From a virus, in IMG/VR virus record IMGVR_UViG_3300031419_000010, positions 46,871-110,870 of that record: a stretch of 64,000 nt of DNA. One strand, written 5' to 3'. This document shows positions 42,522 through 58,005 of the stretch, piece after piece. Position 1 is the first letter of the stretch. Each line of letters begins with the position of its first letter. The translations under genes and the position numbers were made by a program. The notes under the pieces were generated by a model. That model was not told where the DNA came from and ran no database searches. It saw only the letters and a list, made by a program, of their open reading frames with translations.

Positions 42522-44513
42522 TTACTCAGCAGCTTTGGCGGCAACGGTATAAGTGAAACTGGAGTTTGCGAAACCACGTTTTGCGAAACCAATTTCAATT
42601 TCCTGTGCGGCAGCGGCGGCGGATTTGAGATTCAGAGTAAAGCTACCTGCGTCGTCAGCTTCAACAGAAGCAGAAGCATCAGCACAAGTTACCAGAGCGT
42701 GAGGCTCCGTGGTTGCCGTTACGGTGGTGTCACCTTCTGTAATGGTCAACGCTGGTTCAACGAAATTACTAAGCGCGGTAGGAGTTACCGTTAAAGTTTT
42801 ATCTGCGTAATGCAGTTTCTTAAACGTTAAAGTTTCTGCGCTGTTCATCGCCGGGCCAGACAGTTCGAAATTACCATCGGACTCAACAGTGCCAACTTTA
42901 TTACCTTCGATGAAAATTTCTGCATCAGGTTCTGCGGTGCCGTTGATTTCAGTTTCACCAACATAAATAGTTTGATAAGTTGGTGCAGCCTGAACACTCA
43001 GCGCTTTGACTGCAAGCACTAAAGTTTTATCAGCGTAGTTTGTTTTCTGGAACAGAACGTTGGTGTTGCCTGCGCTCAGTGCATCAACGGTCAGACTAAA
43101 TGATCCATCAGCAGAAGCGACAACAGATTTATCCGCAACAGAAACTTTCGTTCCTTCCAGAGTTGTACCAGTGATAACAGTGTCACCTGCGTACGCATCG
43201 TTAAGCGTTGGTGCTGGCAGATCTTTTCCGAGAATATCTACTTCGGCTGCTTTCGAGTTGTAGTATTCGCTGGTGAAAGTAATGATCGCTTCGCCTGCAT
43301 CCAATGCGTCAGTTGCAAAACTAAATGCGCCGTCGTTACCAACAGCAACGTCGTAAGTTTTCGCGTCCGTTACCAGTTCAGCTTTAACATCGGTTGAACC
43401 AGCTTTCAGAACAACTTTACCTTTCACAACTTTTTCTTCCGCGTGAACGGCGTCAACAGTTACTGCGCCAAACTCGTTTTTCTCAGGAGTGCGAGAGAAC
43501 GTAGTTTCTTTGTAGCCAGTAGATTTGACAGTTGCTTTAACGTCGCCCTGAATAGGATTGCAGTTAGCGTTGTATTCAGTTTCGTTTGCCGGAACAGTGA
43601 CGTTAATCAGTGCCTGGCCAGCGATCTCAATTTCAACGCCAAACGGCAACGGCTGTGCCGGATTGATGTTTAACAGAACAGCGTCATCCAGATATTTCGG
43701 AGTGATCATTGTTACGTTAACTTCGCGCTGTTGTGCAGCAGGCGTCACAGTCAGATCGGTGTAGCCTTCATGCGAGAAAAGAATTTCCAGAGTGCCGTGA
43801 GGATACGGAACGTCCAGAGCAAATTTTCCATCGCTACCAGCAGTCGCAACGTCAGCGCTATTGCCGTCATTCAGAAGAATAACAGTTGCGCCTTCGAGTG
43901 TGGTGCCGGTGATCTGCGAGTCAAAGTTGGTGAAGGTGTTCACAGTTGGCTGCGGATAAACCTGCTTCGGTTTTTCCTGAACAGTCACAGCGACGTTTTT
44001 AGTTTCAAATTTTTCTTTCATGAAACTAACGTTAAACTGTTGACCAGCAACAAGCAAATCAATCACAGGCAGAGAAAAGTTTTTACCTTCTCCGACGATT
44101 GTTGCAGAAACTTTACCGCCAATCACAGATTGAACTTGAGTTCCTTCCGGTGCGCTTCCGGAAATCGCGGTGTCGCCTTCGGTAACAGGAACATCAACCA
44201 GCGTGTAAGCCGGGAACTTTTGATCATTTGGCTCAGGCATATCCTGCGGGTTAACCAAGCGCAGTTGCTTTGAAGCAAACACTTGACGCAGTTCGGCACT
44301 TGCCAAAAGGTTTTGTAGCGGCGCATATTCGGTAAGGTCAACGGCGCTTCCCGTGATCGGAATGATAATGTCGCGCATACGAAAATCGCTACCAAGCACA
44401 CTGAAAGAAATCTGACCGCGAGGGAAACTTGCGTTGCGAACCCACATCTTTGGATCAGTAAGAACATTCGTTTTCAGAATTTGTTCAAACTGTTCAAGAG
44501 TAATCGTACTCAT
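42522..44513 (-). CDS. Ig-like repeat virion protein (decoration/fibre candidate)
   Basis: About seven ~80-aa Thr/Val-rich repeats (ITGTT..G..V...DG.F.L). Confidence 0.75.
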   Translation of the reverse strand: MSTITLEQFEQILKTNVLTDPKMWVRNASFPRGQISFSVLGSDFRMRDIIIPITGSAVDLTEYAPLQNLLASAELRQVFASKQLRLVNPQDMPEPNDQKFPAYTLVDVPVTEGDTAISGSAPEGTQVQSVIGGKVSATIVGEGKNFSLPVIDLLVAGQQFNVSFMKEKFETKNVAVTVQEKPKQVYPQPTVNTFTNFDSQITGTTLEGATVILLNDGNSADVATAGSDGKFALDVPYPHGTLEILFSHEGYTDLTVTPAAQQREVNVTMITPKYLDDAVLLNINPAQPLPFGVEIEIAGQALINVTVPANETEYNANCNPIQGDVKATVKSTGYKETTFSRTPEKNEFGAVTVDAVHAEEKVVKGKVVLKAGSTDVKAELVTDAKTYDVAVGNDGAFSFATDALDAGEAIITFTSEYYNSKAAEVDILGKDLPAPTLNDAYAGDTVITGTTLEGTKVSVADKSVVASADGSFSLTVDALSAGNTNVLFQKTNYADKTLVLAVKALSVQAAPTYQTIYVGETEINGTAEPDAEIFIEGNKVGTVESDGNFELSGPAMNSAETLTFKKLHYADKTLTVTPTALSNFVEPALTITEGDTTVTATTEPHALVTCADASASVEADDAGSFTLNLKSAAAAAQEIEIGFAKRGFANSSFTYTVAAKAAE

Positions 44514-45130
44514 TTAATTTTCTCCAGAAGAGAGTTTAAGGCGAAACAGAAGATCTGATACTTTTTCGGAGTCAGGCCAAGCGCGGTGCCTAGCGCAAAC
44601 TCCGTGTTAGTAAGAGTTGAAGTTACTTCTGCAAAACGCGCTTCGTCGCCCATGTACTGCAACATCCAGATTTGATATTCCGGAAAAGTTTCTTGCAGGA
44701 ATCCATGAACGCCGTCAACAGATGGAACGGTTCCAACGTTGTATGAGAAATTTCTTTCCGTTGCAGTGAGATCAAGTTTGTGAATAAAAGTGCTCAGACA
44801 AATTGCAAGACGCGCACGGTTCTGTGAGCGACGAACAGTTGCCTCAAGTTGCTTTTGATCAAACTCACCAAGTTCGGGGAACAATCCCTTTTTGTAGTAA
44901 GCGATTTCTTTACTGCTAATCGGACGGTCAGAACTTTCTTTTCTGTCCAGCGCAAGACAGCCAGTTTCAGTTGCGGTTGTGCAATACTGGCAGCGCGACA
45001 TTGGACACATGCCACGAAAGCGAAAAGGATGGTTCGACTCTTCCAATTCAGGACAAAGATTGATCGGACGCGTATCAACTTTAATCGGAATGTTTTTCTG
45101 TTTGCGTTTTGCTCTTACTGCGGTTGCCAT
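44510..45130 (-). CDS. hypothetical Cys-containing protein
   Basis: CP...CPMSRCQYC...GC. Confidence 0.7.
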   Translation of the reverse strand: MATAVRAKRKQKNIPIKVDTRPINLCPELEESNHPFRFRGMCPMSRCQYCTTATETGCLALDRKESSDRPISSKEIAYYKKGLFPELGEFDQKQLEATVRRSQNRARLAICLSTFIHKLDLTATERNFSYNVGTVPSVDGVHGFLQETFPEYQIWMLQYMGDEARFAEVTSTLTNTEFALGTALGLTPKKYQIFCFALNSLLEKIK

Positions 45131-45189
45131 CTTTTGAATTCCTGTATACAGATTTTATTTTCTATTACAGTACATTTACAGCTTTTGTT

Positions 45190-45876
45190 TCAAAAGTTTG
45201 GAAATTCCACACAATATTCCAAAACAGTCAAGCTGGAATTTGGTGCTGTATCCAGATGATCTGCGCATGACAAAATTAAAATTCGTGGACGCTGCTTAAA
45301 CGGCAACGTGTGTTTCGAAACCATTTTGGTAACGTTGTCTACAAGCTCGTTTAAGTTTTTCCAGTTGAATGATGCACGGGCAAGATCTTCAACTTGATGC
45401 TTGTTGAAAAGCTCAAGGTATTTTTCGTGCGTGATCATTTCAGTGCCAACGCCTACAGTTTCAAACATGCTGCGAATCACATCACACGTTCGGAACATAG
45501 GAAGCGAAACAGGCGCAAGCGGATCGATAGGTTGGTCAACATTGAATCCACGAGGACAAACAGAGAAAACAAACGTGGTAAAGTTTTTGCCTTCGGTCTG
45601 GATCGTTTCAATTTCGCGATAATAAATATCGCAGCCGAGATCCGGATCAACCGTTGGGAAAACTTTACTGCCAACAAAATGCTGAATATCTTTTATCAGC
45701 TTGTTGTAAGTGATCCAAGTAGATTTAAATTCAAACTGCTCAAGCAGATTGCCTTTGGTATCCCGCGCCGCCTGCCCCGGAAGAAGAATGTGAAGGTCTG
45801 CTTCGAACAGCGCTTCCATTAAAGACTGAATCAGCACGTCAGTTTGAAAATTGTTGGTTTGCATATTAACGGTCAT
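45190..45876 (-). CDS. hypothetical protein
   Basis: ATGA coupling with ruvC. Confidence 0.7.
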   Translation of the reverse strand: MTVNMQTNNFQTDVLIQSLMEALFEADLHILLPGQAARDTKGNLLEQFEFKSTWITYNKLIKDIQHFVGSKVFPTVDPDLGCDIYYREIETIQTEGKNFTTFVFSVCPRGFNVDQPIDPLAPVSLPMFRTCDVIRSMFETVGVGTEMITHEKYLELFNKHQVEDLARASFNWKNLNELVDNVTKMVSKHTLPFKQRPRILILSCADHLDTAPNSSLTVLEYCVEFPNF

Positions 45877-46442
45877 GTTTTAAATTCCAAAAGTTTGGGC
45901 GAATTGAGGAAGCGATCAATTAGTTTGTAGATCGTCTTCTGAATTCCCGCAAAGGGTTTGAGATTGTTCATTTTATAGAACGTATAAACTCCAATCAACA
46001 TGGAGTCGAATTCGTGAATTGCTTTCTTACTCTTTTTCGAAGTAAGTTTAAACTCATCGTAAAGATCTTTGAGTTTTGGTTCGCACTCACGGTTGAAAGC
46101 ATTCTTCCATTGCGAAGCAGTGATCGCAAAGAAGGGAATTTTTTTCTTATGGCAGTAAAAAGCCATAACGCCAATCATGATACTGATTGCTTCGATGGTG
46201 TTTCCACCTAACCCGCGTGACTGAAAGCGTTCAAAACACATTGCGTCAAACGGGCCATACTTTTTGTCGATTGCAGTGATCTCGTCAAGAAACTTTTTCG
46301 TTACTGCGCCAAGATCACCAGTAAGATCTTGAATCGGACTGCCAAACATTCGCGTTCCGATAATGTCCAACTTCTTTTTCTCAAAGTTGATAACGGTAAG
46401 CGCAAAGTTCACTTTTCCGGGATCACCAGATAAAATGCGCAT
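45873..46442 (-). CDS. RuvC-like Holliday junction resolvase
   Basis: ILSGDPG.VNFA, CFERF, ASQWK, HEFDS. Confidence 0.75.
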   Translation of the reverse strand: MRILSGDPGKVNFALTVINFEKKKLDIIGTRMFGSPIQDLTGDLGAVTKKFLDEITAIDKKYGPFDAMCFERFQSRGLGGNTIEAISIMIGVMAFYCHKKKIPFFAITASQWKNAFNRECEPKLKDLYDEFKLTSKKSKKAIHEFDSMLIGVYTFYKMNNLKPFAGIQKTIYKLIDRFLNSPKLLEFKT

Positions 46443-46577
46443 AGAAAGCTCCTTTTATTTGTCTATATAAATAATCATTCGTGCGCCTCAAGGTAGAATA
46501 AAATTTTATCAGTAATTTTTCTAAGTAAAGGATTGCTGTGAGAAGGTGTACCATAACGGGCTATTAGAGGCGACACT

Positions 46578-47693
46578 ATGAGTTGGATCAATTCTGGAAA
46601 AAGCCGCACCACTTACAAACGACACAAAACTTATGAAGGTGAAAGAGTCCAAAAAAGATTGGACAGCATCATCGAAGTTGTGCAGTCGAAAGTTGAGCAA
46701 GCTCTTGCTGTTGATAGCACAAAAGTTATCATCTTTAAAAAAGCAAAGTTTGGTTTGGTGTGCAGTTGTAACCGCGTCGAAAATGATTTCGAAGATCTTT
46801 TAGAAGGCGGGATGAAAAGCGTTGTGCGCGAAAATGATGGCGAGTCGCGAGGCGCAGGAGTTTCAATTAAAAGTTCCGGCTCCACGATGTTTGGTGGAAA
46901 AGGAAAAGGCGCAATTGCGTTAGATGATATGATCAGTTCCAGTGCGCAGGCCACGCTTGACGCTGCGGATATGATGAGTGACGGCGGCGAAGAAGATATT
47001 CGCTATGACGGAGGCAACAACGTTAACTGCGGTATCTGTTATCGTCAGGGTGTGCAGCCGGGCTATCAGTCAACAGGTTATATCTATAACGTAATGACGC
47101 ATCACCACACGCAAAAACTTTCCGGATACAATGAGGATCAGTCAACAGCGCCAACAACTTTCAAAGCAGTTAAGAAAGGGGCGTACGTTGATTTTGAAAC
47201 CTTAGTACCGAAATATTTTAAGTCGGCAAAATACAGCATTCGCATAAACGAGATTGTGTTGCCGCCTAGCGTGAAAATGTTTGCTGTGATCAACGGCAAA
47301 GAAACCGCGCTCACTCTTGATCTTCTGAACAAAAAGAAAGGTCAGAATATTATTGTGCGCGTCAAAGATGTTGAGGTGTTCACTCACGCCATTTTGATTT
47401 TTGATTTGGGTGTGGCTGACGTTAACTGCAATATCAGCGAAGAACAAAACACGTTGAACTACGATCAAGAACTCACAGTTGGTAATATCACTGTAGTGCT
47501 TCCTGCTCGTGTTGGAATGATTGAGCCGGAAGATATTCTTGTTCTGCCGTTCAAACGTTATGTTCTGAAAGTTACTGAGGCACCAAAGAAACGCACTGCA
47601 AAAAATCAGTCGTGGGAATGGGTTGTCACAACACGTCCAGTACAGCGAAAGGAATTGCAGTACAACATCAACAAAGGTTTTGACTTGAGGTAA
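46578..47693 (+). CDS. probable virion structural (head completion/neck-like) protein
   Basis: CSC...CGIC; beta-rich C-terminus; first gene after the strand switch. Confidence 0.45.
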   Translation: MSWINSGKSRTTYKRHKTYEGERVQKRLDSIIEVVQSKVEQALAVDSTKVIIFKKAKFGLVCSCNRVENDFEDLLEGGMKSVVRENDGESRGAGVSIKSSGSTMFGGKGKGAIALDDMISSSAQATLDAADMMSDGGEEDIRYDGGNNVNCGICYRQGVQPGYQSTGYIYNVMTHHHTQKLSGYNEDQSTAPTTFKAVKKGAYVDFETLVPKYFKSAKYSIRINEIVLPPSVKMFAVINGKETALTLDLLNKKKGQNIIVRVKDVEVFTHAILIFDLGVADVNCNISEEQNTLNYDQELTVGNITVVLPARVGMIEPEDILVLPFKRYVLKVTEAPKKRTAKNQSWEWVVTTRPVQRKELQYNINKGFDLR

Positions 47694-47695
47694 TC

Positions 47696-48256
47696 ATGCA
47701 GACAGAAATTATTCTAGGTCGCAATCCCGATCAGGTTGCAGATATTCCACAAAGCGGAGACGCGCAAAACACGATCACTGGCGAGAAGCTAACAGAGGAT
47801 GCGCCGCGCACTGATTCAACGATCACGATGCGCGACAACGCACCAGTTGTTAAGCAGGCCGAAGCTGTTGACGTTCGTCCGACGAGCATCAAAGCGGTGG
47901 CGTGTGACGATCCCGGCTACGAAGATTATCTTAAACGTTTGTACAACGTTCCGGAAGGCGGCGAAGTGTCAGGCATTCAAAGAATCTTTGCAGGTCTGGC
48001 GCAAGAACTTCACGACATTACTCAGGGATCAATTGATCGCAAATACAATGTTGTTGGCGGTGTGAGTGAGTCGCGATCTAAATCGGCAAATGCGCGAAGC
48101 AAAATGCTGAAAATGATCATGCCGGAATTGAGTCGTGACATGGGCGATAAACTGTCGAAAGCCGTTGGAGACAACGATGGAGACGCTGTTGCTATGCTTA
48201 TGGCGCAGATCGGCAGGAAGTTGCAGAAAAAGCTCAACATGAAAAATCGAAAGTGA
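47696..48256 (+). CDS. hypothetical (possibly virion) protein
   Basis: GAGG SD; internal VSES motif. Confidence 0.65.
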   Translation: MQTEIILGRNPDQVADIPQSGDAQNTITGEKLTEDAPRTDSTITMRDNAPVVKQAEAVDVRPTSIKAVACDDPGYEDYLKRLYNVPEGGEVSGIQRIFAGLAQELHDITQGSIDRKYNVVGGVSESRSKSANARSKMLKMIMPELSRDMGDKLSKAVGDNDGDAVAMLMAQIGRKLQKKLNMKNRK

Positions 48257-48686
48257 GTAGAATCGCATTCTAAGGGCTTAAAACGCAAATCTACGCGATA
48301 TTGAAATTTGCGTTTTTTATTAAATCCCTTTTTACTCTTACATATCAATGACTTACAGAATGAGCCAAATATTTTACACGTATTTCGGAAATGAAACTTT
48401 CGCTATCCTTTGAGTATTTGCCTATATCCATTGAGTATAGGTAGGGCTAGGTAGGGTATAGCTAGATCGTATGGTGATACCTATAGCGGAGCGCAATGCC
48501 GAACGGACGCAGCCCAGGCCCAGGCCGCCCCAGGCGTAAACCAGCGTAGCGTATGCGTGTATAGCTTTTTAAAATAGATAAGGTCACAAAGAATTTTATC
48601 TTGAAGACAAGAGCTAAAAATAAAAGGGATCTTTGGGCAGGTGGATCGGAAAAATTCTGTAAAGATCAAATGTGTTTCGATAAATC
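48257..48686. other. origin-like non-coding region
   Basis: Inverted repeat 48280-48316, IHF box, AT-rich tracts and several short direct repeats. Confidence 0.55.
48343..48355 (+). promoter_or_regulatory. IHF binding site
   Basis: TATCAATGACTTA matches WATCAANNNNTTR, with an upstream A/T tract. Confidence 0.65.
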
Positions 48687-50348
48687 ATGTTTAGGTATGT
48701 TATGGATACTTTTATCATTAAGAATCCTGCGTATCAAGAGCATTTCACAGTCGAATGGGTTCGAAAGAATGTTATCTTTGCGTGTCCGTACGATGGCCCG
48801 GAAGATCGCGAGTGGGAATTTAGAGAACAAGTTTCCACCTTCTTCTGGCACATTGTGCATTGCACACTTTATAACAGCAAGTTTAAAAACGTTAAGCGTC
48901 TTCCGTCTATTCCTTTCGCTTGGGTCTTTGGTATTCAAAAACTGCCTATGGTTTTTGGATCGGCAGGTAGCCACGGATCAAGTTCAAGATACTCGGAAAA
49001 ATCGAGAACGAAGTTTTCACGCGCACTAGAATGGCTAAAAGAAAATGTTCTGGATGTGTCAGGCTATAAATATGGCGCAGCGGGATCGGCGTGTCGTGAG
49101 TTCAGGATCAAACGTGCGGTATTTGATGGCATGTATCCGTACTCTCCGAAAACGCCGGAAGAAATCTTTGGGAAAGTAAGATATTGCAGTCCAAACTTTT
49201 TGCGAAATACTCCAGTGGGAAAAACCTTAGCTGATATTCTTGAAAGGAAATCGGTTGAGGCGTTGGGTAAACCTTCGCATGATTTTGATTCTCTTGATCG
49301 CAATCGTGATCGCGAAGTCAGAAAACTTTACAAGGAAGTTTTAGATAAACAAGATCCTCTTTCGATTACACTGCTTCCTGTTGTGGAAGAGTTGAGTCGA
49401 TTGAGTAAGTTCACCAGCGCTCAAGCAAAGGCCCGTCATCGTTTGGTGTTTTCAAACACAATGGGAATCTTAGCAGGCAACTTTTCTTGCCATAGCGTTG
49501 AGGAAATGAAAATTTCTTATCTGCCAACTTATCGTGTTAGTCCGGTAGGCGGTCGTCTTTATGAATGTGGCGGCGGTTTTCAAAACTTCCCTCGCAGTCT
49601 AAAAGAGCGTTGCCATATTCGCGGGTACAACCACGACATGCGAAGCAGTCAGCTAAACATTTTGAAGATGGAATTTGATCGCAACAATATTCGTTGCAGT
49701 TCAATCCAAAACTACAAAAGCGTTGCAGACTTTGGTGAACCTTATGGCTTGTCGAAAGACGATACAAAGGTTTGCTTTTATGCGACGGTGTTTAGTATAG
49801 GTCAGGCACTGAATGCAAAATCTTGTTGGCACTCTGAACCTCTGCGCGTTATTGCGAAATCAAAACGCACTGAGTGTATTCACCGCGCCGCAAAACAGTT
49901 GGGTAAAAAGTATCGTGACTCTTCAATGATTCCGCCTGTGATAAAGCTGGCGAGAAAGTTGATGGTGAAGGAAACCAATCGCATTCGCGACATTTGGAAC
50001 AAAGAGAACGAAACTTTAACACTGGCGCTTGAAGAACTTTGCGAAATTTATATTTCCAAAGCTCGTAAGGCGAAGGAAAAAAGTGTGCTCACAAATGCAG
50101 TAGGCGTACGATTTGCCTGGCCGACAGAAGAGATAGATTACAAAATCCGAAAACAGATTTTGAGTCACATGATCACGGGAATCGAAACGAAACTTTTGTT
50201 CGATATGATTTTGTCGAATGATGTTCGTGTTTATTCTTTTGAGCACGACGGCGCACTGATTAGCAGAGCGAAGGTATCGTCAGAGGAAATCGAATTTGTT
50301 CGAAAACCTTTCGATGAAACTTCCTATCAGTATTTCAAAAATCTGTAA
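48687..50348 (+). CDS. minimal family-A polymerase-like protein (TV-Pol-like), no exonuclease domain
   Basis: GGRLY..GGFQNFP, NHDMRSSQL (motif A), TKVCFYAT (motif B), FEHDG (motif C). Confidence 0.7.
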   Translation: MFRYVMDTFIIKNPAYQEHFTVEWVRKNVIFACPYDGPEDREWEFREQVSTFFWHIVHCTLYNSKFKNVKRLPSIPFAWVFGIQKLPMVFGSAGSHGSSSRYSEKSRTKFSRALEWLKENVLDVSGYKYGAAGSACREFRIKRAVFDGMYPYSPKTPEEIFGKVRYCSPNFLRNTPVGKTLADILERKSVEALGKPSHDFDSLDRNRDREVRKLYKEVLDKQDPLSITLLPVVEELSRLSKFTSAQAKARHRLVFSNTMGILAGNFSCHSVEEMKISYLPTYRVSPVGGRLYECGGGFQNFPRSLKERCHIRGYNHDMRSSQLNILKMEFDRNNIRCSSIQNYKSVADFGEPYGLSKDDTKVCFYATVFSIGQALNAKSCWHSEPLRVIAKSKRTECIHRAAKQLGKKYRDSSMIPPVIKLARKLMVKETNRIRDIWNKENETLTLALEELCEIYISKARKAKEKSVLTNAVGVRFAWPTEEIDYKIRKQILSHMITGIETKLLFDMILSNDVRVYSFEHDGALISRAKVSSEEIEFVRKPFDETSYQYFKNL

Positions 50349-50385
50349 ATAGTTATCAGTAAACCGAAGTGTTGGAGATTCTATC

Positions 50386-51456
50386 GTGCCGAAGAAAAAC
50401 GCACGGACGGAAAAGTTGCCAGCGGGGTTGGGTGAGTTGTTTGAAGCGGATCGTCCGGAAGAATCCAAAGTGAAACTTCCGAAAAAGATCAACGGCATTC
50501 GACTCAAACCCAAACCGAAGCCTAAAGCAAAAAAGAAGTCCGGGAATGAAGTGCCAATTGAGATCTACGAACTTGCTGCGTTGTACGAATGCTATCACCA
50601 CAACACAGTAACCGATAGTTATCGCACTTGGCCCGATATGACAATTGCAGAAGCATACAAAATCGTTTCTCAGATGAATCCGTCTGAACTCGAAAGCGTA
50701 AAACAATATGCAGCGTTATATCGAAATGACAGCGGCCTTAAATTTGAAGAGTTGCGTGAATTCCGAAACGCACTCATCGAGAAAGAAATTTCGATTGGGA
50801 TTAGCATTCCCCTGTTTATCGAACATTTCAAGATTGAACCGAACGATCCTATCATTGCCTCGTTGCTTTATACGTGGGCGTCTTATGTTAGGACGATGGT
50901 TGAACGACGCAAAAAATTAATCCCCACAAAAACTCGTCATGCTGCTACTGTGCAGGAAGGCGATTTTTGCGTTGAGATAGAGTGTAACGCGGAACAGGCC
51001 AAAGTGCTTGATCGCTATTGCTCAGTGTGGCACGGAACTTTGCTGGCGTGTCGCGACTATCTCAAATCTCTTGGCAATCGTGCGCCAAAGCGTATTGACA
51101 AAATCAGTAGCAAGCTGGCTACTCAGATTCGCAAGGAACATAACTTTGAAGATGTTCCGCGCAGTCTTGTTGTTTGTGCGTTGAATGGGTACACGCAAAA
51201 ACTAAAGTTCGATAACAACAAAGATTTTAAACGCGATCTGGATCGTTTCTACGTGAAGGACAACTTTAAACTTTTTGAAAATTCATTGACTGTCGGTAAA
51301 GCCAAAGAGATTGCTATCACAAAAATTGTTGGTGGTGAGCGTCTTGATCTAACTGTTCGTGGAATTTCTTTTGCCCGTACTTCTCCGTTGGTTTACACCG
51401 TGACGATTCAGTACGATAAAATGGAATTGCTTGAGCAACAGTACGGTACGGATTAA
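50386..51456 (+). CDS. protein with C-terminal TnpB-like REC/WED region lacking RuvC
   Basis: IECNAEQAKVL..., TQIRKEH..EDVPRSLV..AL, FKL..NSLTVGK..I, VRGISFAR...YTVTI. Confidence 0.55.
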   Translation: MPKKNARTEKLPAGLGELFEADRPEESKVKLPKKINGIRLKPKPKPKAKKKSGNEVPIEIYELAALYECYHHNTVTDSYRTWPDMTIAEAYKIVSQMNPSELESVKQYAALYRNDSGLKFEELREFRNALIEKEISIGISIPLFIEHFKIEPNDPIIASLLYTWASYVRTMVERRKKLIPTKTRHAATVQEGDFCVEIECNAEQAKVLDRYCSVWHGTLLACRDYLKSLGNRAPKRIDKISSKLATQIRKEHNFEDVPRSLVVCALNGYTQKLKFDNNKDFKRDLDRFYVKDNFKLFENSLTVGKAKEIAITKIVGGERLDLTVRGISFARTSPLVYTVTIQYDKMELLEQQYGTD

Positions 51457-51476
51457 GCCTCTTCGGAGGCTTTTTC
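51456..51476 (+). terminator. intrinsic terminator
   Basis: AGCCTC-TTCG-GAGGCT followed by a T tract. Confidence 0.85.
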
Positions 51477-51502
51477 TTCAATCACTTTCGGGAACAATAA
51501 TT

Positions 51503-51964
51503 ATGTTGAGTAATGAGCGTCTTGCTGTAGAAATTCAAAACAGACTCGACATTGTTAATCAATCAATGTGGAACATTTTCGATGCGTTCGAAAAAAGTAT
51601 CTCCGTTCCTAACACTCCTTTCTTCGTTAGCGCTGAGTGGCTGTATGATCACCGCACTCTGTCTTTACGCATGGGAAAAGGAACGGGTCACAGTACGTTT
51701 GCAAAGCAACTGGCAGAGAAACACAACGCCTTTCTTTTAACTATGGATCATGAAGCGCAAGAAGGAGAATTTAATTTCTCACACAATCGCCTTCGTGAAT
51801 TGTACCACAAATTCGGAACTCCAAACATTCCTACTCTGTTTGTTATCGACGACGCTTATCAGTTTGGCGGTCGTTTTGAATCTCTCCGCTTACGTCTGGA
51901 AAGGTTCCGCGATACACTCGGTGAGGATTATCTTCGCAGCGTTCGTTTTGTGCTTTTGAATTAA
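51503..51964 (+). CDS. degenerate P-loop-like protein
   Basis: MGKGTGHST and FVIDD. Confidence 0.6.
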   Translation: MLSNERLAVEIQNRLDIVNQSMWNIFDAFEKSISVPNTPFFVSAEWLYDHRTLSLRMGKGTGHSTFAKQLAEKHNAFLLTMDHEAQEGEFNFSHNRLRELYHKFGTPNIPTLFVIDDAYQFGGRFESLRLRLERFRDTLGEDYLRSVRFVLLN

Positions 51965-51974
51965 GGAAACATGT

Positions 51975-52463
51975 ATGTCTGATTTTAACGAAAGCAATCT
52001 GAACAAGATTCAGAAAACTTTACTGCAACTGGTAAACGATGGGATCGATTATTCGAAAAACGTTTGCAGTATTGTGGCACCTGCTGGATTTGCTGATCCA
52101 AAAGGCATCCGTGATTATTGCCGCATCGCAGTGACTATGCCGCAACGCGCTGGCTCAAGTATGTTCGCTCAGTTTCTTGCTGAATACCTCAGTCAGAAAT
52201 ATCCAGACGCGAACATTATTCGTTTAGCCGGAGAAGAACTTTGCTATGGCGAATCAATCGATCCACGTATTGATTTTATCACCGTGAAAACTCCAGCCGA
52301 TTACGGTCGCGCTCGTCGCCAGATCCGTGACAGCGAAAAGAAATACAATTTCGTGATCGTCGATTCGTACGAATGGGTTTGCGGATTGGATAACCGTCTG
52401 GAAAAACTGTCAGTAGACATGTACCGCACAGGTAACGCTGATCAGTACATCATCGGCCTGTAA
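51975..52463 (+). CDS. degenerate P-loop-like protein
   Basis: MPQRAGSS and FVIVD. Confidence 0.6.
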   Translation: MSDFNESNLNKIQKTLLQLVNDGIDYSKNVCSIVAPAGFADPKGIRDYCRIAVTMPQRAGSSMFAQFLAEYLSQKYPDANIIRLAGEELCYGESIDPRIDFITVKTPADYGRARRQIRDSEKKYNFVIVDSYEWVCGLDNRLEKLSVDMYRTGNADQYIIGL

Positions 52464-52471
52464 GGAAATCT

Positions 52472-53449
52472 ATGAAACATCGTGAAGGTGAATATCTGAT
52501 TGTGCGTAGCGGGAACAAAAATGTTCTCGTACTTGCAACCGGAAAACAAGTTGGCTATCTGGTCAACACACTGGCGTCAAGCGATCCTACCACGATCAAG
52601 TTTAGCGCTAAGTACGACATACTCGCGATTCTCGGCAAAGATCCGGAACCGGGCCAAAAAGTTTTCGGAGTTTCGATTACTCCGCATGTAGGTTTGAAAC
52701 AAGTTGTCGGAATGCCTGCGATGAATCTTTACGGACGTGAAGAACAAGTCGGCAAAGCAATCCGTATTGCCTGCAAAAAGTTTCCTGCTGTTATCGAAAA
52801 GTATGGCGTAGGCGAAGCGATGCGCCGCTGCAAAGAAATCAATTTCAATCAGGTTTCTGGCGGTAGTAAAACGCACGACTTCAAAACTAAGTTCGCGAAA
52901 GAAGAATGGCACGATGCCTTTAATATCTGCGTGAACAAAGATAGCCTGTCGCAAGATGTAACCAACAATATGCTGCTGGCACTTGGGGAAAGTGTGTATC
53001 AACATTTGATTCCTACTAAGCGTAAGATCAAATGGATTCTTCTGCTGAACAAACTGCGCAACGTTCAAAAGTTGGATCAAGATACGTTGGTCGGTTTTCT
53101 GGATGACTTCCTGAAAGCTGGTGATGCTAAAGACGTGAAAAATTTGGTGTCGGAAGATCTGCTTCCATTCACCGATATTATTTTGCGTAGCGTTGCACGT
53201 CAGCGTGTGATGAGCGTTAAGGAACTGGAGTTGCTCGCACAGAACGACAGTGAAGCGATCACAAAATTCTGGCCTGCTGAACTTGAAGTGAGTGATGCGC
53301 GTCCTGACATTGATAAGTCAGCAATGAAAAGTGCCCGTGCATTATTCTCCTATAGTTTCAGCCGATTTGTTCAGGGCGTTGATTTGGGTAAAACTCTGAA
53401 CAAAGCCGTACGCCTCTCTGTTAAGGAGATTCGCGGGGATGCTGATTGA
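52472..53449 (+). CDS. hypothetical protein
   Basis: TAAGGA SD; 325 aa. Confidence 0.75.
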   Translation: MKHREGEYLIVRSGNKNVLVLATGKQVGYLVNTLASSDPTTIKFSAKYDILAILGKDPEPGQKVFGVSITPHVGLKQVVGMPAMNLYGREEQVGKAIRIACKKFPAVIEKYGVGEAMRRCKEINFNQVSGGSKTHDFKTKFAKEEWHDAFNICVNKDSLSQDVTNNMLLALGESVYQHLIPTKRKIKWILLLNKLRNVQKLDQDTLVGFLDDFLKAGDAKDVKNLVSEDLLPFTDIILRSVARQRVMSVKELELLAQNDSEAITKFWPAELEVSDARPDIDKSAMKSARALFSYSFSRFVQGVDLGKTLNKAVRLSVKEIRGDAD

Positions 53450-53774
53450 TCAACTGAACCAAAAAGGAGAAGACGTATTTTCTCCTTTTCCTTTTGACGT
53501 AAATCTGCCGTTTGCTCGTTGCATGATCGCTGGGATAATTTATATCGGAACTGTGTGCAATATTGACGACGATGTTTTTCTGTTGAATGCACATAGCTAC
53601 GATTCTGTTCTTAATCGTTACACCGAAATTGGCGAAGCGATTTTGCTCGATCCCTCTGATCAGATTTTGAAAGTGATAAATACGGATCAAGTGACTTTGC
53701 TTTATCCGAACCAAACTTTCACAGCCGCAATGATAAACGGCTTACCTGTTTTCTTTTCTACAAGGATACATTAA
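53439..53774 (+). CDS. hypothetical protein
   Basis: Overlapping operon ORF. Confidence 0.6.
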   Translation: MLIDQLNQKGEDVFSPFPFDVNLPFARCMIAGIIYIGTVCNIDDDVFLLNAHSYDSVLNRYTEIGEAILLDPSDQILKVINTDQVTLLYPNQTFTAAMINGLPVFFSTRIH

Positions 53775-54341
53775 GTGTTAGTTATTTTCGATGCAGACGA
53801 TACAGGACTGATTACACATCCTGTCATTCTCAACATTTTGAAACAACGTCACGGTCAAGATCTTCCTGTTGACCAGTATCTGACAAAGGACAATGCAGGC
53901 GAAGGTTTTATTGGCCTGATGGAAGATGGCGAGTTTCTCCCGCTGTGTAATATTCGCGAAGGTTTCATTGAGTGCGTTGATGCAGTGATTGCTGCCGGGC
54001 ATGAAGTTGGAATCGGAACACATCGCGGCTATCATCGAATGGGTATGATTCATACTCGCTCTATCTTTGGTGCGCACTGGAAAAAATTCACACGTAACTT
54101 TTTCATTGATCCCTACGTGCATCCGTGCAAGATGAGTTTCATTGAAGAAAGCATTGATGAAGATTTTATCATTGTCGATGATCGGCCCAACTTTAACTCT
54201 GAGTACGATCAGGATGATCCTCGCATTATTCTTTTTGATCAGCCGTGGAACAAAAATCTGCCGTTTGTGCGCGTGGATAAGTTCGATGAAAACTTTCTTA
54301 AAATTCTTTTTGAAAGAATCGAATTTATCTCTAATTTATAA
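53775..54341 (+). CDS. HAD-family 5'(3')-deoxyribonucleotidase-like protein
   Basis: IFDADDT, GTHR, IVDDRP, FDQPWN. Confidence 0.8.
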   Translation: MLVIFDADDTGLITHPVILNILKQRHGQDLPVDQYLTKDNAGEGFIGLMEDGEFLPLCNIREGFIECVDAVIAAGHEVGIGTHRGYHRMGMIHTRSIFGAHWKKFTRNFFIDPYVHPCKMSFIEESIDEDFIIVDDRPNFNSEYDQDDPRIILFDQPWNKNLPFVRVDKFDENFLKILFERIEFISNL

Positions 54342-54342
54342 A

Positions 54343-54623
54343 CTCAAGCCGCAAGGACTTTTGAGAAGAGTTCGTTGTGGCAGAACGAGCCTGCGTTGGT
54401 TTCAAGCATGTAACCAAATGACAGTAAGACTCGTTCGGTGTGTATCCCACTATCGCACCTTAAATCGTGGGGGAGTTTTTCCAATAGGGATACCCGACAG
54501 CCTTGCGGGGAAACTCCAAAGCGATTTGAAAAGATTGTTTTGGAGTTTCAAATATCCTGATAACTATAAACTGCAACAACATTACCCTGATGGGAACAGA
54601 CTTCGCAATCTGTTCCCTTTTTT
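54343..54623 (+). ncRNA. candidate structured ncRNA
   Basis: Nested helices with G-U pairs and a GAAA tetraloop; ends in a terminator. Confidence 0.6.
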
Positions 54624-54624
54624 T
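54592..54624 (+). terminator. intrinsic terminator
   Basis: GGGAACAGA-CTTCGCAA-TCTGTTCCC followed by T7. Confidence 0.85.
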
Positions 54625-54680
54625 GTCCAAAATCTGTAAATAGTCGGTATACGCTTTCTATCTCTACTGGAAAATATATC

Positions 54681-55931
54681 ATGGCTAAAGTTTCAAAACG
54701 CACCATTGGCGACGACGATACCAAAAAGAAAAAGAAAAAGAAGGTTGAAGGAAAGAGCCTGAAAAAGAAAGGTTCGTCTCGCGTGTTTGAACTGGAGACA
54801 AGCAACTTCGCAAACAAGTATCGTCCGAAAAGCATTGAAGACTTTATCGGGCAAGAGCACATTCTCAAACAATACTCAGGTTGGTTGAAGACTAAAAACT
54901 TCCCCAGCGTTATTCTGATCAGCGGTCATTTGGGATCAGGCAAAACAACGTTTGCGGGAATCATCGGTAAGACGGTGAACTGCGAAACGTTAAACGCGTG
55001 TGGTGAGTGTGGTTCGTGTAAAGCGTTTGATGGTGGAATGCACCCGGACATTCTGACTTACGATATGGGTAACGACAGCGGTAAAGTTGACGGCGCTCAA
55101 AAGATTATTGAAAGCAGTACGCTGTCACCGCTTTATAATCGTCGCGTTTATATTCTGGATGAAGCGCACCTGATGACAACTCAAGCGGAATCTAAATTCC
55201 TTATCCCGCTTGAGAATCCGGCACCGCACACTATCTGGATTCTGGTATCAACCGATCCGCAGAAAATCAAAAGCACGATTCTTTCACGCTGCGTTAAGCT
55301 GCCAATCAATCCGATTGATCCGGAAGTGATTGCAGGCCGCATTCGTTCTATCGCGAAAGCAGAAAAGATTCTGCCGAAAGATAAAAAGGAACTGAAAGCC
55401 GCAGACGAAGCGATCAACACAATCGCAGAATACAGTGGCGGTCAGTTGCGTGGTGCAATCGGTTTATTCCAAACTGTTTACAGCGCGGTCAAAGGCGGCG
55501 AAACGTTTAACAATGATCTTGTGCTGGATATGGCGGCATCCGATCCGGACGTTAACTTAGGCGACATGGCTGTAGGCTTCACGCAAAGTTATTTGCAGAT
55601 GGACTTGATTGAAACCGTACGTTTCATTCGTCAGGCGCAAGACATTCGCGGCCTGCTGCATAAAACTCGTTGGCTGCTGCATTACCTGATGGGTAACATC
55701 GCAAAAACAAATAAGTTCCAAACTGCTGAACTTCGCAAGTTCTTAGACGAATCCAAAAAGTCTAAACTTAAAGTGAATCCGGTATCGGTGATTTATTTGC
55801 AGAAGGCGTTGTGTGATATTGAACTGGCTATCAACTCAAGCAGCATTCCAGTTGATGTTATGTTTGAAAGCACTGTCACTGCGCTGATGGCAGATATTTT
55901 TTCTGGTAAACTTTCGGTAGATTTGAAATAA
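54681..55931 (+). CDS. dnaX: DNA polymerase III gamma/tau-like clamp loader subunit
   Basis: KYRP, GQEH, GHLGSGKTT, C..ACGECGSC, LDEAH, TILSRC. Confidence 0.9.
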   Translation: MAKVSKRTIGDDDTKKKKKKKVEGKSLKKKGSSRVFELETSNFANKYRPKSIEDFIGQEHILKQYSGWLKTKNFPSVILISGHLGSGKTTFAGIIGKTVNCETLNACGECGSCKAFDGGMHPDILTYDMGNDSGKVDGAQKIIESSTLSPLYNRRVYILDEAHLMTTQAESKFLIPLENPAPHTIWILVSTDPQKIKSTILSRCVKLPINPIDPEVIAGRIRSIAKAEKILPKDKKELKAADEAINTIAEYSGGQLRGAIGLFQTVYSAVKGGETFNNDLVLDMAASDPDVNLGDMAVGFTQSYLQMDLIETVRFIRQAQDIRGLLHKTRWLLHYLMGNIAKTNKFQTAELRKFLDESKKSKLKVNPVSVIYLQKALCDIELAINSSSIPVDVMFESTVTALMADIFSGKLSVDLK

Positions 55932-56015
55932 TTCTAATGGGTGGCCTTGTGCTGCCCATTTTGCGTTTTGACGCTAATTTCTTACTACAAGTTTTCATTA
56001 CTGGAATCCCTGCAA

Positions 56016-56495
56016 ATGCAAATCGTATTTTCCCTTTCAAAGATTTCGGAGGATCTGTACTGGACGCGCTATAGCGGCAGTCTGAACCCTCTTGAAATGA
56101 GCAAGATGTGTCGCAAACTTTTTGGCGATGATGTTAACCTTAAAGCCTCGCCTATCGGCACAATCAAAACTCGTACAAGCGAAATGACGTTTGTTCCGTC
56201 TGGCGAAGAAGGCGTAATTGCTCTTTATCGCGACGAGGTTGTTAAGTCAGCCAAAGATTTCCAAAACATCATGAAACCAATGCCTGTTAAAACTCCTTTC
56301 GGTGCTGGTGATTTTTATCTGGCTATCGAAGGCAAAGGCCGCAGCATTGCGTACCTTGTCTGGCACAAGGAAAAAGATCAGTTGGTTTATTTCCCTGATG
56401 TTGATGCGCTGCAAGATTTTTACGAAGCTCTCGGTGTTTCACCGGGCGTCGAAAGAATGAAGTCGTACCCAAGCCGTAGGGTTTACGGTGGATAA
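56016..56495 (+). CDS. hypothetical protein with MQIVFSLS leader
   Basis: Start follows a terminator and CTAATTT. Confidence 0.7.
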   Translation: MQIVFSLSKISEDLYWTRYSGSLNPLEMSKMCRKLFGDDVNLKASPIGTIKTRTSEMTFVPSGEEGVIALYRDEVVKSAKDFQNIMKPMPVKTPFGAGDFYLAIEGKGRSIAYLVWHKEKDQLVYFPDVDALQDFYEALGVSPGVERMKSYPSRRVYGG

Positions 56496-56575
56496 GGAGG
56501 TGATCCTATCTCTTCTTTACCGCCAAGAAGTAAAACTTAGGCGGTAGGTACGCTGTACCGAAAAATCTATTTTAA

Positions 56576-56598
56576 AGGCGGGAGCAATCCCGCTTTTC
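56576..56598 (+). terminator. intrinsic terminator
   Basis: GCGGGA-GCAA-TCCCGC followed by TTTT. Confidence 0.75.
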
Positions 56599-56612
56599 TT
56601 TTGAGGTTCCTT

Positions 56613-57290
56613 ATGAAAATTCTAGTCAGCTTGTCGAAAGCGGTTTCGGCTTTCACTCCAAAAGATCAAGCAGCCTTCGACAAGTGGTTTGGAAAATCAG
56701 TTGTCAAAGATCCGCAGGGAAATCCTCTCACTGTATTTCACGGTACTCCGGGAGATTTCAACACGTTTGATCGTAAGCGCTTAGGCTTAGGCAACGACGA
56801 ATATGGCATTGGATTTTATTTCACTGACAGCGCAGAGTTTGCCCGTGCTTATATGGGCGACAGCGGAAGCACAATGCCTGTGTATCTTAAAATTCAAAAG
56901 CCGATTATTTTTGAGAAGCAGCCACGCCTTACATACACGCAGGCTTTCAAAATTGCGAATGGTTTAACGCGCCCTCACTTTAATCGCTTTCTTGCTGAAA
57001 ACTATGATTTGGATTATCAAGGTCTGGCAAGTGCGAAGCGTGAGTATCTGGAAAACTTTGTTGGCATGGATGTTATCGACGCAGGTAACAATCTGTTCCA
57101 AGATCTTTATAAAGACGAACCCGAAGCATATCGCTTCCCGGAAGTCTTTGCAGCCGCAACAGGAAGAGACGGCATAATTGCAAAACGTGGTCAACACTTT
57201 TTCTACATCGTGTTTAGTCCGACGCAAATCAAATCTGCAATCGGAAACAAGGGAACGTTTAAACCACGTACCGAAAACATTCTGGAGTAA
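56613..57290 (+). CDS. ADP-ribosyltransferase-like protein (ART-PolyVal type) with MKILVSLS leader
   Basis: FDKWFGKS...PLTVFHGT, GFYFT, MPVYL, DGII, VFSPTQIKSA..NKGTF. Confidence 0.7.
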   Translation: MKILVSLSKAVSAFTPKDQAAFDKWFGKSVVKDPQGNPLTVFHGTPGDFNTFDRKRLGLGNDEYGIGFYFTDSAEFARAYMGDSGSTMPVYLKIQKPIIFEKQPRLTYTQAFKIANGLTRPHFNRFLAENYDLDYQGLASAKREYLENFVGMDVIDAGNNLFQDLYKDEPEAYRFPEVFAAATGRDGIIAKRGQHFFYIVFSPTQIKSAIGNKGTFKPRTENILE

Positions 57291-57292
57291 CT

Positions 57293-57727
57293 ATGCAAGT
57301 TCTCATTAGTCTTAGCAAAATGAAAAGTCCACTTGAAGATCAAAAAGTGATTCTTGAAAATGCAAAGGACAACGTGACGAAGGCGCAGCGTAGTGAAAAG
57401 TTGGCGCGTAAAAAATTGCAGGACGCCACTGAGGAACAACGCAACGTTGATGGTGCTCGAAAGGAAGTAAACATTCGCAGTGCCATTCGCCGCCGCGCCA
57501 GTGACGTTGAACGCGCCCAACAACAAAAGGTCGGAAGGGCCGGAGTAGTTGATCGTTTGATCGCAGAGTTGGAACGTCTGGACAAGTCAAAAGATACTGA
57601 CCAGAACAGAAAAGCCAACGAAGAACGACGCACAAGTTTGAGAAAACAAATTTCAGACGCACGAACAGCGATGAAGAAAATCAAACTTCCTAAGTCTACT
57701 GTTAAACGCAAGAAACGCCGCCGCTAG
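57293..57727 (+). CDS. basic coiled-coil protein with MQVLISLS leader
   Basis: GGAG SD; Arg/Lys-rich. Confidence 0.7.
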   Translation: MQVLISLSKMKSPLEDQKVILENAKDNVTKAQRSEKLARKKLQDATEEQRNVDGARKEVNIRSAIRRRASDVERAQQQKVGRAGVVDRLIAELERLDKSKDTDQNRKANEERRTSLRKQISDARTAMKKIKLPKSTVKRKKRRR

Positions 57728-57735
57728 GGAAACTT

Positions 57736-58005
57736 ATGAAAAGGTTTGTTTCGCTTTCAAATTCAATGTATCACAATCACGATTACATTGAACTGGTTCA
57801 GCTTGATAATCAAATCAAGGAAGAAGAACGAAGCCAAACAGAATGGACGCCGGGAATGATTTTCGCATCGGAAGACGCTCTGAAATATCCTCGACGTTTG
57901 CGCGATCTGTTAAAGCGTCATTTGGGTCTGGAGAATGTGACCGGGCCGTTTTTCAGCGACTGCTACTTTGACAACAAAGTTAAAATCACGGAACTTCCGA
58001 AATAA
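57736..58005 (+). CDS. hypothetical protein with MKRFVSLS leader
   Basis: Followed by a terminator. Confidence 0.7.
   Translation: MKRFVSLSNSMYHNHDYIELVQLDNQIKEEERSQTEWTPGMIFASEDALKYPRRLRDLLKRHLGLENVTGPFFSDCYFDNKVKITELPK

Follow-up and report, generated by a model that had tools for sequence, protein, structure and literature searches.

A TnpB-type WED-REC lobe without nuclease domain in an exchanged gene cassette of jumbo phages

Introduction

The closest described relatives of the protein presented here are the TnpB proteins of IS200/IS605 elements, in particular that of ISDra2 (PDB 8H1J, 8EXA, 8EX9 and 8BF8; PMC10097598). In ISDra2 TnpB, the WED domain comprises residues 1-12 and 117-176, REC spans residues 13-116 and RuvC begins at residue 185 (PMC10097598). 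The TAM duplex is held in the cleft between WED and REC, where K76 makes a bidentate contact with a TAM guanine, and the omega-RNA scaffold rests on WED plus RuvC, with WED contacting stem 4 and the pseudoknot (PMC10097598).

Several TnpB and Cas12 derivatives have lost nuclease activity. The TldR proteins (fliC- and oppF-TldR), the sigma-associated Cas12f-like factors, Cas12k and Cas12m keep an inactivated or trimmed RuvC fold (PMC10691335; bioRxiv 10.1101/2023.11.30.569447), in agreement with the initial annotation of the locus, which had stated that TldRs retain an inactive RuvC. Such derivatives are kept for recognition rather than for cutting, are immobilised and are linked to other genes. 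Some TldRs are encoded by phages.

A different kind of precedent concerns gene exchange. In lambdoid phages, replication cassettes consisting of the origin and O/P-type initiator genes are exchanged as a unit.

Here, we describe a 356-aa protein of a phyllosphere jumbo phage. It was found in a 64,000-nucleotide stretch of an IMG/VR record (hereafter the window), whose positions are used throughout.

Materials and methods

Residues 185-356 were modelled with AF2 from 21 sequences, including distant Erwinia-type members, and the whole protein was modelled from 15 close homologues. The library used for VIA-align contained 48,161 representative chains. The TnpB profile was built from 63 non-redundant TnpBs of viral contigs, which were gathered by a scan for the motif VGIDLGIK. 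Residues were mapped onto ISDra2 TnpB in two chained steps, from the family to a viral TnpB (L047) with hhalign and from L047 to 8bf8_A with HMMER. The three complete relatives that were searched are JA11, Yoloswag and a 256,657-bp IMG/VR genome.

Results and discussion

Genomic context and protein layout

The source record is 110,870 bp in length, is estimated to be 44% complete and represents DNA found mainly in phyllosphere and leaf metagenomes. The phage is related to Dickeya phage JA11 and Erwinia phage Yoloswag. Dickeya phages JA11, JA33, JA13 and JA29 (Salmondvirus, about 255 kb) share approximately 78% nucleotide identity with the window, and gene order is conserved between the window, these phages and Yoloswag. 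It starts with a RuvC-type Holliday-junction resolvase on the minus strand, a 371-aa protein and a 186-aa protein, followed by about 430 nt of non-coding DNA, a 553-aa protein (phrog_30690), the 356-aa protein, small proteins, a 'peptidase' (phrog_17197) and a clamp loader. The setting is that of a replication/recombination cluster. The gene of the 356-aa protein is present in a single copy and is syntenic in JA11, Yoloswag and the SNUABM phages. The features of the locus are listed in Table 1.

Table 1. Positions of the 356-aa gene, its parts and the surrounding elements in the window
Feature	Position	Strand	Remarks
Non-coding head of the cassette, 430 nt	48257-48686	.	Conserved blocks, short direct and inverted repeats; swapped with both genes
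CTGTAAA-type motif	near 48654-48662		Conserved across four type-I phages
553-aa protein, first cassette gene	48687-50348	+	phrog_30690 (PHROG match 1.8e-78)
356-aa ORF	50386-51456	+	Basic tail, N-terminal helical domain, TnpB-type REC lobe; stop codon 51454-51456
Lys/Pro-rich tail (KPKPKPKAKKK), residues 1-55	50386-50550	+	Predicted to be disordered (pLDDT <50 for residues 1-54)
N-terminal helical domain, residues 58-184	50557-50937	+	Conserved; helices at pLDDT 57-88
Complete TnpB-type REC lobe, residues 185-356	50938-51453	+	Domain model, fold matches, hhalign
WED strand beta-1, residues 193-199	50962-50982	+	
REC helices, residues 202-273	50989-51204	+	
Codon of R259	51160-51162	+	Family-invariant; aligns with ISDra2 K76 (transitive alignment)
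WED beta-barrel, residues 287-343	51244-51414	+	
Terminator-like hairpin (UUCG loop, T-run)	51455-51472	+	Overlaps the stop codon, closes the cassette; next gene from 51503
Structured RNA candidate	54343-54623		2.9 kb downstream of the 356-aa gene, upstream of the clamp loader

The family is small, with 15 close clusters and 22 phage records in GenBank, and a profile search of 1.84 billion representative proteins yielded only six clusters with lengths of 309-389 aa, none of them longer. In comparison with JA11, JA29 and G001, dN/dS was 0.12-0.20 in the WED-REC lobe and 0.16-0.32 in the N-terminal domain. Purifying selection acts on both domains, and the gene is no decaying fragment.

The Lys/Pro-rich tail is missing in the Erwinia-type homologues (alignments). 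The N-terminal domain is kept in every homologue, with E68, P83, L143 and W164 invariant across the family, and gave no match in Atlas, in Pfam or in fold searches with the whole-protein model. It is possibly a protein-docking domain. The initial annotation had described the protein as a TnpB fragment from which RuvC was deleted and which was fused to a new N-terminal domain. An unrelated N-terminal domain does precede the lobe, and RuvC and TNB are absent (see below); the direction of evolution is one that we infer, and a recent fusion is not supported since the domain is present in every homologue.

Relationship to TnpB

The C-terminal half of the protein is a TnpB-homologous WED-REC-WED module. 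The domain model reached a pLDDT of 89.3 and a pTM of 0.84 and consists of a single strand, followed by three REC helices and a beta-barrel. Alignment to ISDra2 TnpB (8h1j_A) with VIA-align yielded a Z score of 13.4 and an rmsd of 3.9, with 160 of the 172 residues aligned collinearly (model residues 6-172, chain residues 3-182). Chains of TnpB, Cas12 or Fanzor fill ranks 1-28 in the library (Z scores of 13.4-6.4), ahead of the first unrelated chain at 5.8. The topology is that of TnpB, in which the REC helical bundle interrupts the OB-fold barrel of WED between beta-1 and beta-2. Judged by the published domain limits of ISDra2 TnpB (PMC10097598) and the matched part of the chain, the phage domain corresponds to the whole REC lobe and to nothing more.

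A Foldseek search, which had been suggested as a check against TnpB and Cas12f, was led by TnpB and Cas12 chains. The match to ISDra2 TnpB 8exa_A had an E value of 2.9e-5, a probability of 1.0 and a TMq of 0.57; for 8ex9_A, a chain resolved for WED and REC only, TMq and TMt were 0.58 and 0.60. Among the first 19 matches listed, 18 were TnpB, Cas12f, Cas12k or Cas12n. In BFVD, the homologues of JA11 and Yoloswag are represented by predicted structures that were deposited separately, and these share the fold (TMq 0.93 and 0.73, respectively); viral TnpB/Fanzor 'transposases' rank after them. The model of the whole protein was poor (pLDDT 60.5), and its top matches in the PDB, though weak, were again TnpB and Cas12f.

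Sequence identity to the TnpB structures is only 12-15%. Comparison of the profile of the family domain with the TnpB profile using hhalign gave a P value of 4.9e-6 in local mode (score 46, 143 columns) and of 5.2e-7 in global mode (167 columns, query 1-172 to template 7-190). The 31 controls gave P values of 0.12 for the reversed profile and of at least 0.014 for 30 column shuffles. The order of the hallmark TnpB motifs is kept (strand plus EQ helix; L..[IL][RK]KE...[DE]VP[RS]..; [PG]K[AL][KG]). These results bear out the initial annotation of positions 50959-51456 (residues 192-356), according to which residues of approximately 192-345 follow the N-terminal layout of TnpB; the four motifs quoted for it were found at residues 193-207, 244-266, 294-308 and 325-344. 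No TnpB family was detected in Pfam (E values up to 10), PHROGs, PDB sequences or the profile search of 1.84 billion representatives. The proposed check with the HTH_OrfB_IS605 and OrfB_IS605 models was likewise negative, as the Pfam profiles did not match the protein. Plain HMM searches are insensitive here, and the signal requires structure or profile-profile comparison.

Absence of the nuclease lobe

The lobe stops where TnpB continues with the WED-RuvC linker and the RuvC-I motif. In the global hhalign alignment the last columns are those of the TnpB VGID (RuvC-I) motif, and all 21 homologues extend no further than the last WED strand or a short linker behind it (alignments), confirming the earlier observation that the ORF stops where RuvC-I would begin. 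At their C-terminus, the Dickeya-type proteins carry G-T-D or a variant of it, which aligns with G-I-D, with low confidence at this end of the alignment, and may be a vestige of RuvC-I.

Neither OrfB_IS605 nor Y1 TnpA (Y1_Tnp) was found in the 110-kb record, the latter in line with the reported lack of a nearby tnpA. In the three complete relatives, OrfB_IS605 gave no match above the cut-off. The same applies to TNB (PF07282) in both the record and the three relatives, with the best sub-threshold match (13.2 bits, E value 0.02) located elsewhere in JA11. A RuvC half encoded in trans was also searched for by comparing all 157 ORFs of at least 90 aa in the window singly with the TnpB profile; the best P value of 0.0033 over 17 columns is at chance level, in a scan of low power because the 356-aa protein itself is invisible to it as a single sequence.

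Compared to IS200/IS605 TnpB, the phage protein shares the REC lobe, with the REC helices inserted after WED beta-1, and lacks the linker, RuvC, TNB and the C-terminal domain. Since linker, RuvC and TNB are all absent, it cannot cut. It also lacks TnpA, IS ends and an adjacent omega-RNA, adds the N-terminal helical domain and the basic tail, and is encoded by a fixed phage gene, which is present in one copy and subject to purifying selection. As in the phage-encoded TldRs, the lobe resides in a phage genome; TldRs retain the dead RuvC and an adjacent guide RNA, whereas the protein described here lacks the entire NUC lobe, and no RNA gene was found next to its gene. As the exapted TnpBs in the literature searched, TldR included, keep the RuvC fold, the protein represents a more reduced form, as the initial annotation had supposed. 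A RuvC-less TnpB lobe is not described in the TnpB/Cas12-exaptation literature that was searched.

TAM-type cleft

Relative to ISDra2 TnpB, the protein keeps the TAM-duplex cleft and has an arginine (R259) at the position of K76. In the mapping, which is transitive, is based on approximately 13% identity and could be one residue off, S260 corresponds to F77, V263 to Q80 and D292/N293 to T123/N124 of ISDra2. The invariant residues S242, T246 and R249 are located on the preceding REC helix, near S56; together with the invariant S260 they lie on the same REC helices as R259. According to this low-identity mapping, the positions that differ between Dickeya-type and Erwinia-type members would be base-reading ones in TnpB, a pattern to be expected from differing DNA specificities.

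The TAM cleft is kept in full, and one half of the surface for omega-RNA is gone. As this lobe grips the TAM duplex in TnpB, a nuclease-free reader of duplex DNA appears to be the most economical interpretation. Of the two functions suggested in the initial annotation, a TAM-type DNA binder and an RNA-loaded regulator, these data favour the former. An RNA ligand is less likely but conceivable, since WED also binds RNA in TnpB.

Exchange of the cassette between related phages

The family of the 553-aa neighbour occurs in 44 phage records, 22 of which also encode the 356-aa protein; the other 22 carry the neighbour without it. Neighbours of type I are those of the window and the Dickeya JA phages, which possess the 356-aa gene. 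Type II, 35-38% identical to type I, is found in Alexandra, Y3, SNUABM_17, SNUABM_32, SNUABM_34 and fHe-Yen9-02, all without the gene. Type III belongs to phages with the gene (Yoloswag, SNUABM_5, SNUABM_7, SNUABM_16, SNUABM_35 and SNUABM_52); in local alignments, its identity amounts to 19-24% with type I and 21-27% with type II. AD1, whose neighbour is 46% identical to that of Alexandra, also lacks the gene. In phages without it, the slot is filled by proteins of 155-175 aa. Those of the Alexandra- and Y3-type phages show no detectable kinship to the N-terminal domain (hhalign P values of 0.18, 0.069 and 0.21). The function of the 356-aa protein is therefore replaceable, given that related phages do without it and carry small proteins of no detectable kinship in its place.

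The distribution of the gene does not track taxonomy. pEp_SNUABM_52, which has the gene, and Y3, which does not, share a species label. Their right flanks are 98.7% identical, beginning exactly past the stop codon of the 356-aa gene, and their left flanks are 88% identical up to the preceding gene. Between these flanks, the segment of pEp_SNUABM_52 (non-coding DNA, 553-like gene and 356-aa gene) has zero nucleotide similarity to that of Y3, which consists of a non-coding region and genes for proteins of 538, 174 and 165 aa. In the comparison of SNUABM_16 with Alexandra, similarity breaks at the same two points. These matching boundaries indicate that the 553-aa and 356-aa genes, together with the non-coding head, are inherited and exchanged as one unit. 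Exchange of this upstream non-coding region and the two genes as a single cassette between near-identical phages is a new observation at this locus, and it is the strongest evidence that the three parts work together.

The lambdoid replication cassettes show the same kind of swap, in that a non-coding region and two or three genes are likewise exchanged between near-identical phages. A block swap of this kind would be expected if a protein that recognises DNA had to match its cis site. The two systems differ in that no sequence or fold kinship exists between them, and a role of the jumbo-phage cassette at an origin is only a candidate function.

Other parts of the cassette

The non-coding head is a candidate cis site (promoter, binding sites or origin). 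Across four type-I phages it is conserved in an invariant 17-mer, ATCAATGACTTACAGAAT, as well as in the CTGTAAA-type motif of Table 1. The 553-aa protein gave no match in HMM searches of Pfam or PDB sequences. Its invariant residues follow the motif order of family-A polymerases (GGRL..GGGFQN, D317..SSQLN, K361..Y365 and H520-D521). Assignment to that family lacks statistical support, as a comparison with 26 viral PolA domains by hhalign was collinear over the motifs and non-significant (P value 0.056). A complex prediction for the 553-aa protein and residues 55-356 of the 356-aa protein scored 0.00, which is uninformative either way.

Proposed function and alternatives

Taken together, we propose that the 356-aa protein is a nuclease-free, probably duplex-DNA-binding recognition subunit of the cassette, a reading to which we assign a probability slightly above one half (about 0.55). 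The TAM-type cleft of the lobe would bind duplex DNA, the basic tail would add affinity, and the N-terminal helical domain would dock the protein to another phage protein; the 553-aa protein would be its partner in the cassette. Its likeliest task would be to recognise a cassette-specific cis site, either an origin or a regulatory site, on behalf of the cassette, and the non-coding DNA of the cassette itself would be the likeliest target.

Given that the derivatives in the literature searched keep the cutting fold, the protein would add a new mode of TnpB re-use, in which the recognition lobe is employed alone. A RuvC-less family that is coupled to an additional domain and evolves under purifying selection in at least five named genera of jumbo phages would show that this lobe is a self-sufficient module which evolution can redeploy, and would offer a natural minimal TAM/PAM-type recognition domain of about 170 aa for study and perhaps for engineering. 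The cassette swap amounts to a natural experiment, with near-identical phages that differ only in the module, and could reveal its role in jumbo-phage replication or regulation.

A more specific version of the proposal is speculative, and we consider it a long shot. In that version, the phage would possess a new kind of cassette for replication initiation (or priming), and the lobe would serve as its targeting subunit, either programmable or site-specific. The lobe would guide a divergent, polymerase-like enzyme to a cis site that matches it within the non-coding DNA of the cassette, and a short RNA produced from this DNA might take part. The cassettes of sister phages would then solve the same task with unrelated small proteins.

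Among the alternatives, an RNA-loaded regulator fares best, although we regard it as unlikely. The lobe would bind an omega-RNA-like guide and act as a minimal RNA-guided DNA or RNA binder, in effect a TldR-like repressor in further-reduced form. The contacts of TnpB WED with omega-RNA are in favour of this reading, as is a conserved structured RNA downstream, one of two RNA partners named in the initial annotation. This element has a fold z score of -6.4 and nine covarying pairs and occurs in conserved form in JA11, JA29 and the IMG/VR genome; in Yoloswag, conservation extends to its core (nhmmer E value 3.7e-7). A covariance model (R1) located it at the same locus in phages with and without the 356-aa gene, including full-length matches in fHe-Yen9-02 (E value 7e-6) and SNUABM_34 (E value 1.3e-4), which lack the protein; the hairpin alone was found in Y3, Alexandra and others. 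The element is a structured RNA candidate, and its occurrence in phages lacking the protein rules it out as a dedicated partner. The second partner named, the non-coding head of the cassette, was rejected as a structured RNA, as it folds no better than shuffled sequences (z score -0.97). No Rfam match was obtained in positions 44000-58000. Nor does an omega-RNA lie at the 3' end of the gene or beyond it, where space is lacking, with the hairpin on the stop codon and a gap of only about 46 nt to the next gene. In addition, the half of the omega-RNA surface contributed by RuvC is missing.

Still less probable, in our estimation, is a protein without any nucleic-acid role, i.e. a scaffold or adaptor, or a decoy that mimics the TnpB/Cas12 lobe against RNA-guided nucleases of the host or of rival elements. 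Phages often carry mimics of host defence parts, the conserved N-terminal domain fits a protein partner, and the protein is dispensable in sister phages. Against this stand the location of the invariant polar and basic residues, clustered on the counterparts of the DNA-reading helices of TnpB, the Lys/Pro-rich basic tail, and the position in a replication/recombination cluster where the gene is swapped together with a non-coding region. Matches to anti-defence families were limited to one member that matched Gad1 with an E value of 0.004.

Convergence on an OB-barrel with an inserted helical bundle, or the assembly of TnpB from an older stand-alone module, would fit the low identity, the blank standard HMM searches and, for the latter, the nearest Atlas clusters, which are short (178-226 aa) archaeal and Aquificota families of the 'transposase fragment' type that hint at stand-alone lobes, yet we judge it the least probable reading in view of the shared insertion topology and collinearity, the exclusive occurrence of TnpB, Cas12 and Fanzor chains above a Z score of 6, the significance of the profile-profile signal against controls and the common motif order. 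The stand-alone archaeal families are PF27229 and PF27234, both named by Atlas, and PF27142. What is left of the convergent or ancestral reading concerns the direction of descent, which would run from TnpB to the phage lobe in the interpretation favoured here.

Cassette replacement and its gene products

The cassette was found to be replaced between pEp_SNUABM_52 (L130:367-3453) and Y3 (L118:3076-6159), and likewise between the second pair, L128 and L117 (SNUABM_16 and Alexandra). The phages compared share a species or genus label and are 88–99% identical in the flanks, between which a non-coding region and two to three genes are unrelated at the nucleotide level. Within the non-coding region, the CTGTAAA motif located just upstream of the 553-aa gene (48654-48662) recurs in reverse-complement form inside an invariant 17-mer, ATCAATGACTTACAGAAT (window 48340-48362). 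Together they form a 9-nt inverted repeat with a spacing of 292 nt.

In the 553-aa protein, the order of invariant residues is that of the family-A DNA polymerase motifs. HMM searches of Pfam and PDB yielded no match for it, and comparison with viral PolA by hhalign gave a P of 0.056. A separate PolA fused to UDG was reported for these phages (PMC7412058). JA11 gp200 (JA33_200; L001:6746-7963) is 405 aa long in GenBank, its start being placed approximately 430 nt too late; tblastn and the open frame point to a protein of 553 aa, like the one in the window.

Erwinia-type TnpB-lobe proteins start near residue 47. Downstream of the TnpB-lobe gene, two neighbouring small proteins (51503-51964 and 51975-52463, plus strand) resemble degenerate P-loop paralogues (GKGTGHST/PQRAGSSMF), one of them with weak matches to AAA proteins only (E 0.01).

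Features of the cassette and the downstream region
Feature	Window position	Strand	Remarks
553-aa protein	48687-50348	+	PHROG family phrog_30690
KPKPKPK tail, Lys/Pro-rich	50386-50550		Dickeya-type members of the TnpB-lobe family only
Structured RNA candidate, conserved	54343-54623	+	Fold z -6.4; 9 covarying pairs

Downstream RNA candidate

The RNA candidate, for which Rfam holds no family, is flanked by a HAD/PNK-like gene and a clamp-loader gene, and its 3' end is a terminator. Of 15 related jumbo phages, 13 have a match to R1, its covariance model, at this locus (E up to 1), a count that includes several weak or hairpin-only matches. These matches occur irrespective of the presence of the TnpB-lobe gene.
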